From a virus, in the UHGV virus genome UHGV-0171999: a stretch of DNA of 64,000 nt; one strand, 5' to 3'. Positions 10,520-63,515 of the stretch are shown here, piece by piece. The notes beneath the pieces were generated by a model. The model was given only the letters and a program-made list of their open reading frames with translations. It was not told where the DNA came from and did not search any database. Position 1 is the first letter of the stretch. Each line of letters begins with the position of its first letter. The translations under genes were made by a program, and so were the position numbers.

Positions 10520-11216
<697 letters not shown>

Positions 11217-11228
11217 TTTCACAAAGTT

Positions 11229-11258
11229 GTTTACACGTTGATGAGGTAGTGATACTAT
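11229..11258 (+). promoter_or_regulatory. early promoter (GTTTACA -35, extended -10 TGaTACTAT)
   Basis: sigma70-like elements with about 17-18 bp spacer, AT-rich upstream; precedes ipI. Confidence 0.6.
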
Positions 11259-11288
11259 TATCTCATCAAAATTAATTAGGAAAATAAA

Positions 11289-11575
11289 ATGAAAACTTTC
11301 AAAGAATTTACTTCTACAACTACCCCGGTTTCTACTATTACTGAAGCTACTCTTACTTCTGAAGTTATTAAAGCAAATAAAGGACGAGAAGGTAAACCAA
11401 TGATTAGTTTGGTTGATGGTGAAGAAATCAAAGGTACTGTTTACCTAGGCGATGGATGGTCTGCTAAAAGGATGGTGCTACAATCGTTATCTCTCCTGCT
11501 GAAGAAACTGCGTTGTTTAAAGCTAAACACATTTCTGCGGCACATCTCAAGATTATTGCTAAAAATCTTTTGTAA
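11289..11575 (+). pseudogene. ipI: internal protein I gene with apparent -1 frameshift in an A-run at about 11466-11469
   Basis: First 60 codons read MKTFKEF...GDGWSAK; after the A-run the zero frame reads RMVLQSLS... to 11603, while the +1 frame encodes DGATIVISPAEETALFKAKHISAAHLKIIAKNLL and stops near 11575, matching recalled T4 IPI. Confidence 0.6.
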
Positions 11576-11593
11576 TAAATATTTCACAAAGTT

Positions 11594-11623
11594 GTTTACA
11601 TAGGGTTTTAGTTGTGATACTAT
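11594..11623 (+). promoter_or_regulatory. early promoter
   Basis: GTTTACA, 17 bp, TGaTACTAT; overlapped by the frameshifted ipI read-through. Confidence 0.6.
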
Positions 11624-11651
11624 TACCCTATCAACTACCGAGGAGAATAAA

Positions 11652-11837
11652 ATGAAACGTTGTGAATTAATTCGAAATGTTGCTATTGCAATTTCTGCTT
11701 CTGCTTTTAGTTTTTCAATGTTTGTTGGATTTATATGCGGATTATTAACTACAGCAGAAAACGTTTTTTCACTTGTAGTAGCATTTTTAATTGGTTTAAT
11801 TGCTATCGTTATGGATAAAATTTCTAAAGGTGAATAG
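11652..11837 (+). CDS. small hydrophobic membrane protein
   Basis: 61-aa ORF with one long hydrophobic stretch; downstream of an early promoter. Confidence 0.45.
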   Translation: MKRCELIRNVAIAISASAFSFSMFVGFICGLLTTAENVFSLVVAFLIGLIAIVMDKISKGE

Positions 11838-12606: not shown

Positions 12607-12679
12607 TGGGAATTAGCCAAGTTGGTAAGGCACTGGATTTTGATTCCAGGATGCAAAGGTTCGAGTCCTTTATTCCCAG
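12607..12679 (+). tRNA. tRNA-Gln (anticodon UUG)
   Basis: Cloverleaf by eye: acceptor tgggaat/attccca, anticodon loop ttTTGat, T-loop TTCGAGT. Confidence 0.8.
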
Positions 12680-12680
12680 C

Positions 12681-12767
12681 GCGAGAATGGTCAAATTGGT
12701 AAAGGCACAGCACTTAAAATGCTGCGGAATGATTTCCTTGTGGGTTCGAGTCCCACTTCTCGCACCA
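12681..12767 (+). tRNA. tRNA-Leu (anticodon UAA), long variable arm, CCA encoded
   Basis: Acceptor gcgagaa/ttctcgc, anticodon loop ctTAAaa, T-loop TTCGAGT, ends ACCA. Confidence 0.8.
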
Positions 12768-12772
12768 AATTT

Positions 12773-12846
<74 letters not shown>

Positions 12847-12856
12847 ATTTAATTTA

Positions 12857-12931
12857 CTCCGTGTAGCTCAATGGCAGAGCGATCGCCTGTTAAGCGATTG
12901 GTTATAGGTTCGAATCCTATCACGTCCGCCA
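12857..12931 (+). tRNA. tRNA-like element, anticodon GUU (Asn), three mismatches at the acceptor-stem end; possible pseudo-tRNA
   Basis: D-arm GCTC/GAGC, anticodon stem atcgc/gcgat with loop ctGTTaa, T-arm atagg-TTCGAAT-cctat, 3' GCCA; 5' ctccgtg pairs with 3' cacgtcc at only 4 of 7 positions. Confidence 0.4.
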
Positions 12932-12935
12932 AATC

Positions 12936-13011
12936 CGAGGCATAGCTCAGAAGGAAGAGCAAGGACCTTCTAAGTCCTAGGTCGTAGGTTCGATCCCTAC
13001 TGCCTCGACCA
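12936..13011 (+). tRNA. tRNA-Arg (anticodon UCU), CCA encoded
   Basis: Acceptor cgaggca/tgcctcg, anticodon loop ctTCTaa, T-loop TTCGATC, ends ACCA. Confidence 0.8.
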
Positions 13012-17159: not shown

Positions 17160-17962
<803 letters not shown>

Positions 17963-18440: not shown

Positions 18441-18701
18441 ATGAAAATGTATCAAGAATTTATCATTGAAGCAGATGCCAAAGGTCCTAAATTTAAAGTT
18501 AAAGCTTTCATTGGTGATGCGGAAGACTTTGGCTCATTAAAACGTAATGGGTATTTTTTCTTAGGTGGCGATGGTAAAGAAATCAACACCTATGCAAAAC
18601 GTAGTGAAATTGCTTATGTTGTAGCAAGCCCTAAAGTAGATGTTGACGATATTGGATATGATTTTAACAACTTCGGAATTATTTCTGGCGGTAAAGCTTA
18701 A
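18441..18701 (+). CDS. internal protein (IPII-like) with capsid targeting sequence
   Basis: N-terminus MKMYQEFIIEA; 86 aa. Confidence 0.55.
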   Translation: MKMYQEFIIEADAKGPKFKVKAFIGDAEDFGSLKRNGYFFLGGDGKEINTYAKRSEIAYVVASPKVDVDDIGYDFNNFGIISGGKA

Positions 18702-18764: not shown

Positions 18765-19343
18765 ATGAAAACGTATAAAGAATTTATCGCCGAGGCCTTT
18801 GCAGGAAAAGCTCAAGGTATTAATAAGGACGAGTGGACTTATCGTGGTGGAAACGGCTTTGACCCTAAAACTGCTCCACTTGAACGATATCTAGCCACAA
18901 AAGCTTCTGATTTTAAAGCCTTCGCTTGGGAAGGACTTCGCTGGCGTAACGATCTAAATATTGAAGTTGACGGACTTAAATTTGCTCATATTGAAGATGT
19001 TGTTGCTAGTAACTTAGACGCAGCTTTTGTTAAAGCCGACAGTGACCTTCGTCGCTGGAATTTAAAACTGTTCTCTAAACAAAAAGGCCCGAAGTTTGTG
19101 CCTAAAGCAGGTAAATGGGTTATTGATAATAAATTAGCTAAGGCTGTCAACTACGCCGGTCTTGAATTTGCCAAGCATAAATCATCATGGAAAGGTCTTG
19201 ATGCAATGGCTTTCCGTAAAGAATTTGCCGATGTTATGGCTAAAGGCGGCTTTAAGGCAGAAATAGATACCTCTAAAGGTACGTTTAAAGACGCTAATGT
19301 TCAGTACGCTTACGCCGTTGCTAATGCGGCCCGTGGTAATTAA
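18765..19343 (+). CDS. internal protein (IPIII-like) with capsid targeting sequence
   Basis: N-terminus MKTYKEFIAEA; 192 aa, lysine/alanine rich. Confidence 0.6.
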   Translation: MKTYKEFIAEAFAGKAQGINKDEWTYRGGNGFDPKTAPLERYLATKASDFKAFAWEGLRWRNDLNIEVDGLKFAHIEDVVASNLDAAFVKADSDLRRWNLKLFSKQKGPKFVPKAGKWVIDNKLAKAVNYAGLEFAKHKSSWKGLDAMAFRKEFADVMAKGGFKAEIDTSKGTFKDANVQYAYAVANAARGN

Positions 19344-26168: not shown

Positions 26169-26516
26169 ATGCTGACACGCGAACAGTTTGAAAAAATCAT
26201 TAAATTAGTACGTGATGTTGAAATAGATTCATATCAATTAGCAGTTGAGCATTGTGAAGGATACTCATACGATGGTATAGAAGCAGCTAAAAAGGATTTG
26301 GATAAATCCAAAGCTAAGTTAGTTCAATATCTTGAAATGATTAGGTGGACTGAAAAGCAGATGTTTTTAATGAAGCTAATTGAAGAATATGCTAATGCAG
26401 TTTCTGACTATGAGTATTCTGCTCGAGAAAGAGGTACAGCTTTCGCAAAGGAAGAAATGAAAATCATGGTTGATGCTCACACAAAGCTTCAGAATTTTAT
26501 TGAAAACGTCATTTAA
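26169..26516 (+). CDS. hypothetical protein
   Basis: 115-aa ORF. Confidence 0.45.
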   Translation: MLTREQFEKIIKLVRDVEIDSYQLAVEHCEGYSYDGIEAAKKDLDKSKAKLVQYLEMIRWTEKQMFLMKLIEEYANAVSDYEYSARERGTAFAKEEMKIMVDAHTKLQNFIENVI

Positions 26517-32081: not shown

Positions 32082-32144
32082 GGAAAATATGTCAGTAGTA
32101 ATTAATAATGTCAATGCAGTAATTAAATCTTTAGTTAATAAAAA

Positions 32145-32978
32145 ATGATGAATGAATGGACTGTATTTCGTCGTGGAGAGCCAGATAAATTTTTTCATAG
32201 ATTTAACTCAACTTTGGATTTGAATGTTATCGACAGAGATGTTCATGCAGAAATTTTAGATAAGTTTAAAGTTGATATTGGATTTGGATTAGAAAAACAT
32301 TTGCAGCGAACAAATGGGTCTGGAATGAGTTTATCTAATCGCATTATGAAAGCCCTTAATAAAATTGGAGCGTTGTCTCGTATTAACGCGAGTGAAATCC
32401 TTCGTAATTATAATAAAGGATATGACCTTTATGGTCGACTAATGCCGAAGTTATCATTTGACCAAATGATTGCAGATTTGTGGGAAAATCAACGACGATT
32501 ATTAGCATTAGGTGCTCGATTAGCTAAAGGTCTAGATAAACAAATGATTTTTAAGACCAATAATACAGAAGACCTTAAATGCTTTAAATTTAGTATTCGT
32601 GGCGATGATTATTACATCAGAGCTCGCTCTACAGATTATGTTAATATGGGTCATCATCTCTGTTTAGCCTTTGAAGTTTTAAAAGAAGCTGGAACACTAG
32701 AATATTCATCTGGTGCAAAATGCCCTATTGGCTCAAGTTGTATTTTAATTTATCGCCCGAATGAATCCAGTTCAACTACATTGCCTACGAAACCTGTACC
32801 AGTTCGTAGTAACGAAAAACATTCTGAACAAATTGATTATTTTAATAAGCAAATTGAAGAGCTGAATATTTCTATTCAACAATATGATGATGAAATTTTC
32901 AGACTATCTGGACTGAGTAGTAAAGCTAAATCTGAGCGTGAAAAGTTAATTAAAATTGTTGATTTACTTAAATCTTAA
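32145..32978 (+). CDS. hypothetical protein
   Basis: 277-aa ORF; C-terminal coiled coil. Confidence 0.5.
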   Translation: MMNEWTVFRRGEPDKFFHRFNSTLDLNVIDRDVHAEILDKFKVDIGFGLEKHLQRTNGSGMSLSNRIMKALNKIGALSRINASEILRNYNKGYDLYGRLMPKLSFDQMIADLWENQRRLLALGARLAKGLDKQMIFKTNNTEDLKCFKFSIRGDDYYIRARSTDYVNMGHHLCLAFEVLKEAGTLEYSSGAKCPIGSSCILIYRPNESSSTTLPTKPVPVRSNEKHSEQIDYFNKQIEELNISIQQYDDEIFRLSGLSSKAKSEREKLIKIVDLLKS

Positions 32979-32986
32979 GGAACACC

Positions 32987-33334
32987 ATGAAAACTCGTTC
33001 TCAAATTGAAGATATGGTTCGTAATGCCAGCTATACTCGTGATGTTATGACATTTTTGTGTCAAAATAATTTAGACCCTGATAAAGTTAATCGTGATATT
33101 CACTTTAAATATATGAATAGCAGTGAATGGTTACGTCATTTTAGTAAAGCGGGGTATATTACACAAATGACTGCTCGTGAGCAGCTCACCGATTTCTGTA
33201 AAACTATTGATTATAAAAATCCTCTATTTGTTCAGGCGTTGGTCAGAGTAAGGTTGATTTATCATCTGGATTTTTTAATCCAAATCATTATCGTATTGAA
33301 TGGAGATTTATTGCTCTATTCCGTAAACAATTAA
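32987..33334 (+). CDS. hypothetical protein
   Basis: 115-aa ORF. Confidence 0.4.
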   Translation: MKTRSQIEDMVRNASYTRDVMTFLCQNNLDPDKVNRDIHFKYMNSSEWLRHFSKAGYITQMTAREQLTDFCKTIDYKNPLFVQALVRVRLIYHLDFLIQIIIVLNGDLLLYSVNN

Positions 33335-33417: not shown

Positions 33418-34317
33418 ATGGAAGTAAGACCATTAAAAGAAAATAATAGAACTGCACGAATTAGCTTTAAACCTAATACAAAAAATTCTCTTTCAATTTG
33501 CGAATGCCTTAAATCGCAGTTGACAGAAGCATTTAAGTATATGGATGTTGTTGCCGCTGTTCAGTCTAAGATTTTACCTCGTTTTGAGCGATTTAAATTA
33601 GACACAACAACATATGAACTTGATATGATCGTTTCATTTAAATACGATTTTTTGAGAAAGGATGAAGTCCCGCAAGAGAAAAAGCAGGAAGTGCAAGATA
33701 ACTTAAATTTAAATTTATCTAATTACTCATCAAACGATCCTAAATTTTGGATGTATAGTTCAGGTAATGAGGATGCATGGAAATTCAATAAAGTGAATAT
33801 GCTTTTTAAGCATGCTCGCAAATTATTTACCGCGGGTGATGACCGTACAAATACAGTTCATGTTAAGGACTGGGTTATTGCTGATGAAGTAACACATAAG
33901 CCAGGTGGTTCATCAGTGTTAATTAATATCCAGGTTCCTTATTATTACTCACGTAATCTCGGCACCATGAACTCTAGAGAAATTAATAAGCACAACAAAA
34001 CTATTCGTTCGTTGTCTTATAAACTCCGCATGATGTTAAAAATCATGGACGTAGTGGAAATGTATGACGAAACCGAAGATAATGGTTCAATGTTATACAG
34101 CTCACGCATTCTAATTAAACTGAAGAACCCTAATACATACAAGCCAGTTGTAAAAGAACCTAAAGTAGAAAAGGTTGATAACCTGAGCGAAGAACGCGAA
34201 TATCTTAATGCTCGCTTAATTGAAGTTGAAAAACAGATTGAAGAGCATACTAAAGTTCTTAAAGATTTAACTGCCAAAGCAAATGGTTTACGTAATGCTA
34301 TTGAGGTATTAAAATGA
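33418..34317 (+). CDS. hypothetical protein
   Basis: 299-aa ORF; C-terminal coiled coil. Confidence 0.5.
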   Translation: MEVRPLKENNRTARISFKPNTKNSLSICECLKSQLTEAFKYMDVVAAVQSKILPRFERFKLDTTTYELDMIVSFKYDFLRKDEVPQEKKQEVQDNLNLNLSNYSSNDPKFWMYSSGNEDAWKFNKVNMLFKHARKLFTAGDDRTNTVHVKDWVIADEVTHKPGGSSVLINIQVPYYYSRNLGTMNSREINKHNKTIRSLSYKLRMMLKIMDVVEMYDETEDNGSMLYSSRILIKLKNPNTYKPVVKEPKVEKVDNLSEEREYLNARLIEVEKQIEEHTKVLKDLTAKANGLRNAIEVLK

Positions 34318-56659: not shown

Positions 56660-57400
56660 ATGATTAATGACTCTTTGACAGTTGAAGAAATCCGTCTTCA
56701 TTTGGGAATTGCGTTAAAGGAAAAAGATTTCGTAATTGATAAAACTGGCGTTAAAACTATTGAAATTATTGGTGCATCATTTGTAGCAGATGAACCTTTT
56801 ATTTTTGGCGCTCTTAATGATGAATACATTCAACGTGAACTTGAATGGTACAAGTCTCAAAGTCTGTTTGTTAAAGATATTCCAGGTGAAACACCAAAGA
56901 TTTGGCAACAGGTAGCATCTTCTAAAGGCGAAATTAACTCGAATTATGGTTGGGCCATCTGGTCAGAAGATAACTATGCCCAGTATGATATGTGTTTAGC
57001 TGAACTTGGTCAAAATCCTGATTCTCGACGTGGTATCATGATTTATACTCGTCCATCCATGCAGTTTGACTACAACAAAGATGGTATGTCAGATTTCATG
57101 TGTACTAATACAGTACAGTACCTGATTCGTGATAAGAAAGTCAATGCAGTAGTAAGCATGCGCTCAAATGACGTGGTCTTCGGATTCCGTAATGATTATG
57201 CATGGCAAAAATACGTATTAGATAAATTAGTATCTGATTTGAATGCAGGCGATTCAACTCGTCAGTATAAAGCAGGTTCTATTATATGGAATGTTGGAAG
57301 TCTTCATGTATATTCTCGTCATTTTTACTTGGTTGATCATTGGTGGAATACTGGCGAAACTCATATTGTGAAAAAAGACTATAAAGGTGAGTGGAAATGA
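56660..57400 (+). CDS. 42: dCMP hydroxymethylase gp42
   Basis: 246-aa ORF MINDSLTVEEIRLHLGIALKEKDF...; matches recalled T4 gp42. Confidence 0.92.
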   Translation: MINDSLTVEEIRLHLGIALKEKDFVIDKTGVKTIEIIGASFVADEPFIFGALNDEYIQRELEWYKSQSLFVKDIPGETPKIWQQVASSKGEINSNYGWAIWSEDNYAQYDMCLAELGQNPDSRRGIMIYTRPSMQFDYNKDGMSDFMCTNTVQYLIRDKKVNAVVSMRSNDVVFGFRNDYAWQKYVLDKLVSDLNAGDSTRQYKAGSIIWNVGSLHVYSRHFYLVDHWWNTGETHIVKKDYKGEWK

Positions 57401-58239
57401 TTCAATTCGTAATTCCAAGTTATCAGCGTGTCGGGGCAGTTTCTGCCCTTGATATGTTTCCGACTGATTATGAACCCCATATTGTAGTGCGTGAACATGA
57501 AGAAAAAGCTTATTATGACGCTTACGGGTCTAGAGCTAAAATTGTAGTTATTCCCGATGATGTAAATGGAATTGCTGGAACTCGTAAAGCAATTACTGAT
57601 ATGTATGCAGGCCAACGAATTTGGATGATTGATGATGATACTACTATTCGTATGAGTTCAATGCGAAAGAAAGATGATCGTCGCTGCGTAGATAAAATTA
57701 ATCAATTAACTCGTGAACAGTTCTATGAATTGATTCAATACGTGGAAGATGCAATGGATTGCGGGTATTATCATGGTCATGCTCGTCTACCTATTTTTAA
57801 AATTACTTCATCTTGGGGTAATTATCGTGAAAATTCATATGGATTCACGAATACCTGGTATGACCTCGGAAAACTTACAACAGAACAAATTGGGTATGGA
57901 AAAATTGATTTATGCGAAGATATGTATGCATTTCTCAATTTAATTAATCAAGGTTATCCGCATTTGGCCTTGTTCAAATATCTGGTTGTATCTGGAAAAG
58001 CACAGGCTCCTGGCGGATGTAGTTCAATTCGTAGTAATTCAAAACATAATAGAGCGCTCGAGCAAATCAATAGAGAATTTCCAGAGCAAGCTCGTTGGAA
58101 AACATCGAATATTGAAAATAGAAAATCGTTGGGTGAAGAAGACGAGCCATTAAAAGTTCTTCGCATGTGTGTTTCACGTAAAGAAAAATCAGAAGCATTT
58201 CATAAGTTTAATGCTATTCATCCAATAGCAGTTGATTAA
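57397..58239 (+). CDS. GT2-family (GT-A fold) glycosyltransferase at the beta-gt locus; not T4 beta-gt-like
   Basis: N-terminal FVIPSYQR (GT2-type IPxYN motif) and DxD motif WMIDDDT; ATGA overlap with gene 42; lies between 42 and uvsX. Confidence 0.6.
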   Translation: MIQFVIPSYQRVGAVSALDMFPTDYEPHIVVREHEEKAYYDAYGSRAKIVVIPDDVNGIAGTRKAITDMYAGQRIWMIDDDTTIRMSSMRKKDDRRCVDKINQLTREQFYELIQYVEDAMDCGYYHGHARLPIFKITSSWGNYRENSYGFTNTWYDLGKLTTEQIGYGKIDLCEDMYAFLNLINQGYPHLALFKYLVVSGKAQAPGGCSSIRSNSKHNRALEQINREFPEQARWKTSNIENRKSLGEEDEPLKVLRMCVSRKEKSEAFHKFNAIHPIAVD

Positions 58240-63350: not shown

Positions 63351-63515
63351 ATGAAAACATATAAAGAATTTATTAAAGAAGATATGGTTGCTGGAGATTC
63401 AGGTGGTAATCCTGAAAATATCTCTACTGGAACAACATCAGGTGCTGTAGTAAATAAAGGTCCTGAACAGATTCCTAAAAAGAAAAAAGAGGAATCTAAA
63501 GAAAAAGAAGAGTAA
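63351..63515 (+). CDS. small lysine/glutamate-rich protein with IP-type capsid targeting sequence
   Basis: 54-aa ORF (below the 60-aa track cutoff) MKTYKEFIKEDMVAG...; SD aggaggt upstream; abuts gene 61. Confidence 0.45.
   Translation: MKTYKEFIKEDMVAGDSGGNPENISTGTTSGAVVNKGPEQIPKKKKEESKEKEE

Follow-up and report, generated by a model that had tools for sequence, protein, structure and literature searches.

Internal proteins of T4 carry an N-terminal leader that targets them to the prohead, and they are injected together with the DNA (PMC12373910, PMC3012670). Ip1 specifically inhibits GmrSD of E. coli CT596, an enzyme that cleaves glucosyl-hmC DNA; Ip1, Ip2 and Ip3 each block their own GmrSD variant alone, and Ip1 is non-essential and specific to one such variant (PMC12373910). 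The mature protein, IPI*, has a compact fold in which an N-terminal and a C-terminal helix flank two beta sheets, and inhibition requires this fold (PMC3012670). According to the account of Black and Abremski 1974 given in PMC12373910, ipI-minus T4 mutants were isolated in the laboratory. T2 and T6 are reported to be without Ip2 and inferred to be without Ip3 (Repoila 1994; PMC12373910).

Here we describe the ipI locus of UHGV virus genome UHGV-0171999, a metagenome-assembled Tequatrovirus, analysed as a stretch of 64,000 nucleotides that we refer to as the window. The DNA is an ipI gene and the protein that it encodes is not a complete IPI. The most probable explanation is that ipI has lost one base (A5 to A4) through a real deletion that is recent in evolutionary terms, giving a null allele of a dispensable anti-restriction gene.

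The ipI gene and its reading frame

Direct reading of positions 11100-11800 placed the start of ipI at an ATG at 11289, with AGGA 5' of it. The coordinates proposed by an earlier, sequence-only reading (gene at 11289-11603, A-run at 11466-11469 and a stop near 11575) were all correct. An early-type promoter is found upstream on the + strand (11230..11258), made of TTTACA, a 17 nt spacer and TACTAT with TG, and alignment revealed the same promoter sequence upstream of ipI in T4 and EPIMRB01. Codons 1-19 (11289..11345, + strand) encode an intact capsid-targeting leader (MKTFKEF...) ending in the ITE/A motif. The leader reads MKTFKEFTSTTTPVSTITE/A, where the slash marks the cleavage point, and it contains the prohead-protease site (L/I-x-E); the mature chain of PDB 2JUB begins at A20 of the ipI product (ATLTSE). 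Codons 20-60 (11346..11468, + strand) follow in frame and correspond to residues 1-41 of mature IPI*, which has 76. Altogether, the first 60 codons read MKTFKEFTSTTTPVSTITEATLTSEVIKANKGREGKPMISLVDGEEIKGTVYLGDGWSAK (MKTF...GDGWSAK), and the capsid-targeting N-terminus that had been recognised in them retains both its leader and its cleavage site.

The reading frame is altered at a run of four A residues (11466..11469, + strand). The context of this run is GCT AAA AGG ATG in the window, and relatives have A5 at the same place (GCT AAA AAG GAT). After codon 60, the ATG frame gives RMVLQSLSLLLKKLRCLKLNTFLRHISRLLLKIFCNKYFTKLFT, a new tail of 44 codons (RMVLQSL...TKLFT; 11469..11603, + strand) that is Leu-rich, has a net charge of +10 and ends at TAG 11601-11603, resulting in an ORF of 104 codons. 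The frame read from 11291 gives K-DGATIVISPAEETALFKAKHISAAHLKIIAKNLL and terminates at a double stop (TAA 11573-11575 and TAA 11576-11578); the out-of-frame remnant (11468..11575, + strand) holds IPI residues 61-95 (KDGATIVIS...IAKNLL) and the first of these stops. As anticipated, the tail encoded in the zero frame is unrelated: its 44 residues are unlike IPI and reach the next early promoter. The extended ORF runs past the double stop and overlaps the -35 hexamer of the early-type promoter of the trna.4 homologue (11595..11623, + strand; TTTACA-17-TACTAT), the homologue itself lying at 11652-11837. Further along, at 12607-13011, the tRNA cluster contains only four genes (Gln-ttg, Leu-taa, Gly-tcc and Arg-tct), compared with eight in T4.

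The proposal that the frame changes at the A-run was therefore confirmed by direct reading, but the frame that continues the protein had been wrongly named +1. The wild-type continuation is in the -1 (equivalently +2) frame relative to the ATG, whereas many stops close the true +1 frame. The proposed loss of a single A (AAAAAG to AAAAG) was also borne out, multiple alignments with T4 and relatives showing one gap in the A-run.

Several lines of evidence identify the gene. A 521-base query around the site matched 709 phage records, mostly Tequatrovirus, and in the best matches the region, with 57B and trna.4 on either side, is annotated 'internal protein I', 'internal head protein' or 'nuclease inhibitor'. 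In the window, too, ipI has 57B and trna.4 as its neighbours and an early promoter in front of it, which is the position of the gene in T4. With the missing A restored in silico, the protein has 95 residues, and PDB 2JUB ('Internal protein I'), a chain of 76 residues, matched its residues 20-95 with 100% identity (E = 1e-44). The repaired ORF matched Pfam PF11634 IPI_T4 over positions 1-76 with 180 bits, whereas the unrepaired ORF matched positions 1-42 of 76 alone, with 94 bits. The IPI C-terminus given in the sequence-only reading was thus right, the repaired ORF being identical to T4 IPI* (2JUB) and matching IPI_T4 from end to end. The window's ipI itself lacks an uninterrupted ORF of about 95 codons, its frame changing after codon 60.

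The A4 allele among relatives

Alignment with T4 ipI and its relatives, which had been suggested as a check, showed that all of them have either one extra base at the run or AAG AAA. The sequence AAAAA is present at the site in T4 (NC_000866), EPIMRB01, Aplg8, G50 and RB27, and three divergent ipI alleles have AAG AAA instead of the A-run, still encoding Lys-Lys. In every one of these aligned relatives, the three divergent alleles included, the ipI ORF is intact and comprises 94-96 codons. The top matches of the 521-base query aligned 522 record bases to its 521 bases. A shorter, 126-base query centred on the site matched 135 records with a best identity of 96.8%, corresponding to the gap and three SNPs; among the matches listed of these 135, all align 127 bases to the 126 query bases. 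The A4 allele was found in none of the 135 phage records with a T4-type ipI matched by this query, and no exact match to it was found in IMG/VR, JGI metagenomes or GTDB genomes (one per species). A polymorphism shared with relatives, one of the explanations initially offered, did not hold, the allele being absent from every collection searched (the 135 phage records, IMG/VR, JGI and GTDB). Nor did any relative checked have the zero-frame C-terminus of the window, a finding that would have cast doubt on the IPI sequence used in the sequence-only reading.

At the protein level, an IPI homologue was found in 292 phage records, and in 282 of these one frame covered 80% or more of it. Two candidates were discarded. 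IME339, the only close homologue below that threshold (78% coverage) and a possible second disrupted allele, has an intact ORF with a divergent leader, and a 68-aa cluster representative labelled 'Enterococcus faecalis' partial (P0002), a possible second carrier, is a truncated wild-type sequence. The 104-aa frameshift product (P0001) is already stored as a protein in ENA- and Logan-derived collections, where it shares a cluster with a truncated wild-type IPI that bears the label 'Enterococcus faecalis' (WP_411429804.1), probably a phage contamination of an Enterococcus faecalis assembly.

Three synonymous SNPs, at 11420, 11450 and 11456, precede the deletion by no more than 47 bases. Compared with the 135 records the window alone has them, and the 521-base stretch around them is otherwise near-identical. 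All three fall at the third position of Gly codons, and two of the three states are present in divergent ipI alleles. We considered this cluster as a recombination patch or a trace of defence escape and rejected both, as it represents ordinary four-fold-site variation in a window that is about 4% diverged overall from its nearest relatives. An intact ancestor with the two private SNPs nearest to the deletion was searched for in IMG/VR and JGI metagenomes, and none was found there.

The length and conservation of the run bear on the idea that it is a phase-variable on/off switch of ipI. A homopolymer within the coding region of a host-range gene is what such a contingency locus would look like, but in T4-type alleles the run has no more than 5 bases, and divergent alleles, which write Lys-Lys as AAG AAA, do not conserve it. 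All other records are in the ON state, and no other length variant occurs among the 135. As neither a long conserved run nor length variants between strains were found, we rejected a homopolymer contingency locus, an explanation that we hold to be exceedingly improbable.

Leaky recoding, by a -1 ribosomal slip on GCU AAA AGG or by transcriptional slippage on the A-run, would restore some full-length IPI. If the Lys tRNA slipped by -1 on AAA and reading went on with AAG GAU, the exact wild-type sequence (...AKKDG...) would result, and AGG is a rare codon in E. coli. The X XXY YYZ heptamer is nonetheless absent (zero frame, GCU AAA AGG; -1 frame, C UAA AAG G), and a -1 slip would bring UAA under the P-site tRNA, with a mismatch at the first position. 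We looked for a stimulatory structure in the 100 nt downstream; the predicted minimum free energy was -16 kcal/mol against a mean of -18.3 for shuffled sequences (z = +0.74), a fold no better than that of shuffles and a further argument against recoding. The A4 run is also too short for transcriptional slippage, the phage-encoded tRNA-Arg(UCU) makes ribosome stalling at AGG less likely, and the two-frame arrangement is present in no relative. A programmed -1 ribosomal frameshift site was rejected, there being no slippery heptamer, no stable structure and no conservation in relatives, and the chance that any leaky recoding operates at this site is very remote.

Comparison of divergent alleles indicated which of the two frames is maintained. 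Over codons 61-95, the Mosigvirus alleles of O157 typing phage 3 and PhAPEC2 differ from T4 by 16-17 synonymous and 3 non-synonymous codons. The small number of non-synonymous changes indicates that the C-terminal 35 residues of IPI are under purifying selection. The frame of the window's new tail has a stop in O157tp3, UFV05 and PhAPEC2, indicating that this tail is not a conserved alternative.

These results also bear on whether the inactivation was adaptive, either because loss of IPI* allowed escape from a host system that senses it, or because the basic-tailed chimera became useful in itself. Host guard-type systems can sense anti-defence proteins, a general consideration in favour of the former, and the intact leader and cleavage site mean that the chimeric protein could still be packaged. 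Against either version, the new tail frame is unconserved and interrupted by stops in divergent alleles, and the null allele is a single occurrence with no parallel, 282 of the 292 IPI-bearing records being full-length in a single frame. The literature searched yielded no sensing system for Ip1, which is a further point against escape. Adaptive inactivation therefore appears very unlikely. It is highly improbable, more specifically, that the knock-out was selected in a gut host population, for example by evading guard-type immunity set off by injected IPI*, or that the leader-bearing, basic-tailed chimera now serves as a new internal protein that is packaged and injected.

Real mutation or sequencing error

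The sequence-only reading had left open a real mutation, a strain polymorphism and a homopolymer sequencing error. The first is the best reading, and the last is unlikely, the same base string being found in three differently named assemblies of one sample. The exact 104-residue product was detected on four contigs of 50-200 kb, three of which are described here: ENA ERZ28629209 'PASO19-1_SAMN09781698_METAG-scaffold_6' (167,058 bp), ENA ERZ1035044 'NODE_3_length_167000_cov_45.62' (about 45x by its own label) and Logan SRR7658682_312 (51 kb). Stretches of 6.3, 20.3 and 12.6 kb from the three assemblies showed zero differences from the window. That at least three assemblies with different names agree on this call speaks against an artefact of the assembler. 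They very probably come from the same reads of one sample and do not represent independent sampling.

The main rival of a real deletion is a sequencing artefact, in which the ipI of the phage is intact, with AAAAA and 95 codons, and base calling or assembly dropped one A; we consider it unlikely. The change falls within a homopolymer, the A4 allele is private to one sample, and all the assemblies probably share the same reads, as an artefact would predict. On the other side stands the agreement just described, one of the three assemblies being labelled about 45x. The sequencing platform is also relevant. Illumina consensus sequences seldom miscount runs of 4-5 bases, so that a miscount of this run is unlikely if the data are Illumina. 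The PASO19-1 label suggests, by name alone, an origin in the Pasolli 2019 Madagascar stool cohort, for which NexteraXT libraries were sequenced on an Illumina HiSeq2500 (PMC6349461). By the same name link the platform is probably Illumina, on which runs of this length are not error-prone, a further point against an artefact.

The sequence 3' of the deletion can be read both ways. The remnant at 11468-11575 shows no further decay and is identical to T4 IPI at the protein level, as would be the case if the deletion were an artefact; because it is still exactly the T4 sequence, the lesion, if real, is recent. Judged by its sequence, the undecayed remnant would fit a very recent mutation and an error equally well.

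To place the deletion in context, the window was compared with T4 and EcNP1 by blastn and tblastn, using reference ORFs of 100 aa or more. Its nearest relatives, EcNP1 among them, share about 96% identity with the window, indicating that the window represents a distinct lineage. At least 90% of the length was recovered in one frame for 105 of the 113 reference ORFs. Among the unrecovered ORFs, no essential gene was broken by a frameshift, and gp7 was short only because it is cut by the end of the window. Genes 6, 5, 2, 3, 1, 55, 47, 46, 45, 44, 62, 43, 42, uvsX and 41 are intact in the window.

Three frame breaks are private to the window when compared with both T4 and EcNP1: those in ipI and in the homologues of nrdC.5 and nrdC.6. 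In the nrdC.5 homologue, a change from TTCAAGG to TTCAGG at 33234 splits the gene into ORFs at 32987-33334 (115 aa) and 33418-34317 (299 aa). One extra base is present at this site in all matches listed, of 492 phage records, and the break is found on all four contigs with the fragment, those with a stated origin belonging to this one sample. In the nrdC.6 homologue (32089-32978), A7 is reduced to A6 at 32140-32145, cutting off the first 19 codons, which end at a TGA overlapping an ATG at 32145; the main nrdC.6 ORF would start 19 residues late. Here too, one extra base is found in all matches listed, of 502 records.

The presence of two more private single-A deletions in ORFs of the same 64 kb could hint at a systematic undercall and is a point in favour of an artefact. 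One of the two, AA to A, is not of the homopolymer type, which speaks against it. Most private one-base indels fall in the small non-coding, intergenic fraction of the window, a pattern expected for natural indels filtered by selection. The T4 reference has private frame changes of its own, in vs.5, vs.8 and the C-terminus of nrdC.6, when compared with the window and EcNP1, indicating that frame polymorphism in accessory ORFs is ordinary in the genus. The absence of any frameshift in the large essential genes also counts against an artefact, although three random events would leave them untouched about 27% of the time, essential genes making up about 35% of the window by our estimate. We therefore set aside as weak the argument that unbroken essential genes by themselves exclude errors. 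A separate length change was seen at 26169-26516, where the window lacks 10 bases, at 26349, that T4 and EcNP1 have. Without them mobD.3 loses its stop and mobD.2a its start, and the two are fused into a single 115-aa ORF (DUF7438).

Predicted consequences and comparison with known systems

A real deletion of one A would most likely have arisen by replication slippage at the codons for Lys60-Lys61. The frame change follows residue 41 of mature IPI*, and the last 35 of its 76 residues are replaced by 44 unrelated basic ones. The chimeric product could still be made from the early promoter, packaged and cleaved, but would lose the C-terminal helix and part of the sheets of IPI*. It would probably be unable to adopt the compact fold reported as necessary for inhibitor activity. 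Considering the extent of the truncation, the chimera would be inactive, exposing glucosylated hmC DNA to GmrSD of the CT596 type. Because of the published work on Ip1 (PMC12373910, PMC3012670), the chimera should be inactive and the phage should be sensitive to CT596-type GmrSD. The phage would remain viable, ipI being dispensable on hosts without this enzyme, and it also carries other leader-bearing internal proteins, including ipIII.

Four more ORFs of the window open with an internal-protein leader (MKTYSEF, MKMYQEF or MKTYKEF). They are found at 17681-17962 (93 aa, phrog_3499), at 18441-18701 in place of ipII (86 aa, phrog_2667), at 18765-19343 (an intact ipIII) and, far from the usual ip loci, at 63351-63515 (54 aa, phrog_1823), the last encoding an acidic and Lys-rich product.

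The genes for glucosylated hmC present in the window are gene 42, an a-gt homologue and a gene for a 282-aa beta-glucosyl-HMC-alpha-glucosyltransferase, from which the phage DNA is predicted to be glucosylated hmC of the T2/T6 type. The last of these genes, at 57391-58239 (phrog_842, E = 2e-89; Pfam TAGT), replaces b-gt and segA of T4. The window thereby pairs a T2/T6-type sugar chemistry with a T4-type ipI.

If the deletion is real, the window represents a natural Ip1-null T4-like phage from a metagenome, probably of the human gut. It would be a small data point indicating that wild phages can do without individual injected GmrSD inhibitors and that simple slippage is enough to lose one. Loss of ipI fits the published picture of a fast-turnover repertoire of internal proteins matched to specific GmrSD variants. 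For annotation purposes, the locus should be recorded as a disrupted ipI or pseudogene, and databases should not carry the 104-aa ORF forward as a new variant of IPI. The lesion amounts to an ordinary knock-out in a gene that is both known and dispensable; it reveals no new kind of system and opens no new question.

The closest described system is ipI/IPI* of T4 itself (NP_049749; PDB 2JUB; PF11634), which occupies the same locus between 57B and trna.4 behind the same early promoter. The leader region of T4 ipI is identical to that of the window except at synonymous sites, and amino acid identity is 100% over mature residues 1-76 once the window's gene is repaired. What sets the window's gene apart from T4 ipI is the absence of one A at codons 60/61: 41 of the 76 mature residues are common to both, and the 44-residue tail is unrelated. 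Ip2 and Ip3 of T4, which inhibit other GmrSD variants, share with Ip1 the N-terminal packaging leader and the logic of an injected anti-restriction protein; beyond the leader they have no sequence similarity to it. Since each of them inhibits its own GmrSD variant alone, they would not replace Ip1.

The window's allele resembles the laboratory ipI-minus mutants of T4, in which Ip1 function is likewise lost and the phage is otherwise viable, both of which would hold for the window phage as judged from its genes. The phenotype of those mutants, restriction by E. coli CT596, is the one that would be expected by analogy for the window phage. Unlike them, the window's allele stems from a metagenome assembly. 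T2 and T6 have a beta-glucosyl-HMC-alpha-glucosyltransferase of the type found in the window, and these phages show that a phage can do without one or another internal-protein gene and that such genes have a patchy distribution; flank matches were found in 709 phage records, against only 135 with matches to the T4-type ipI core. In T2 and T6 the internal-protein gene is absent or a different cassette takes its place, whereas in the window ipI is present and broken by a point frameshift.
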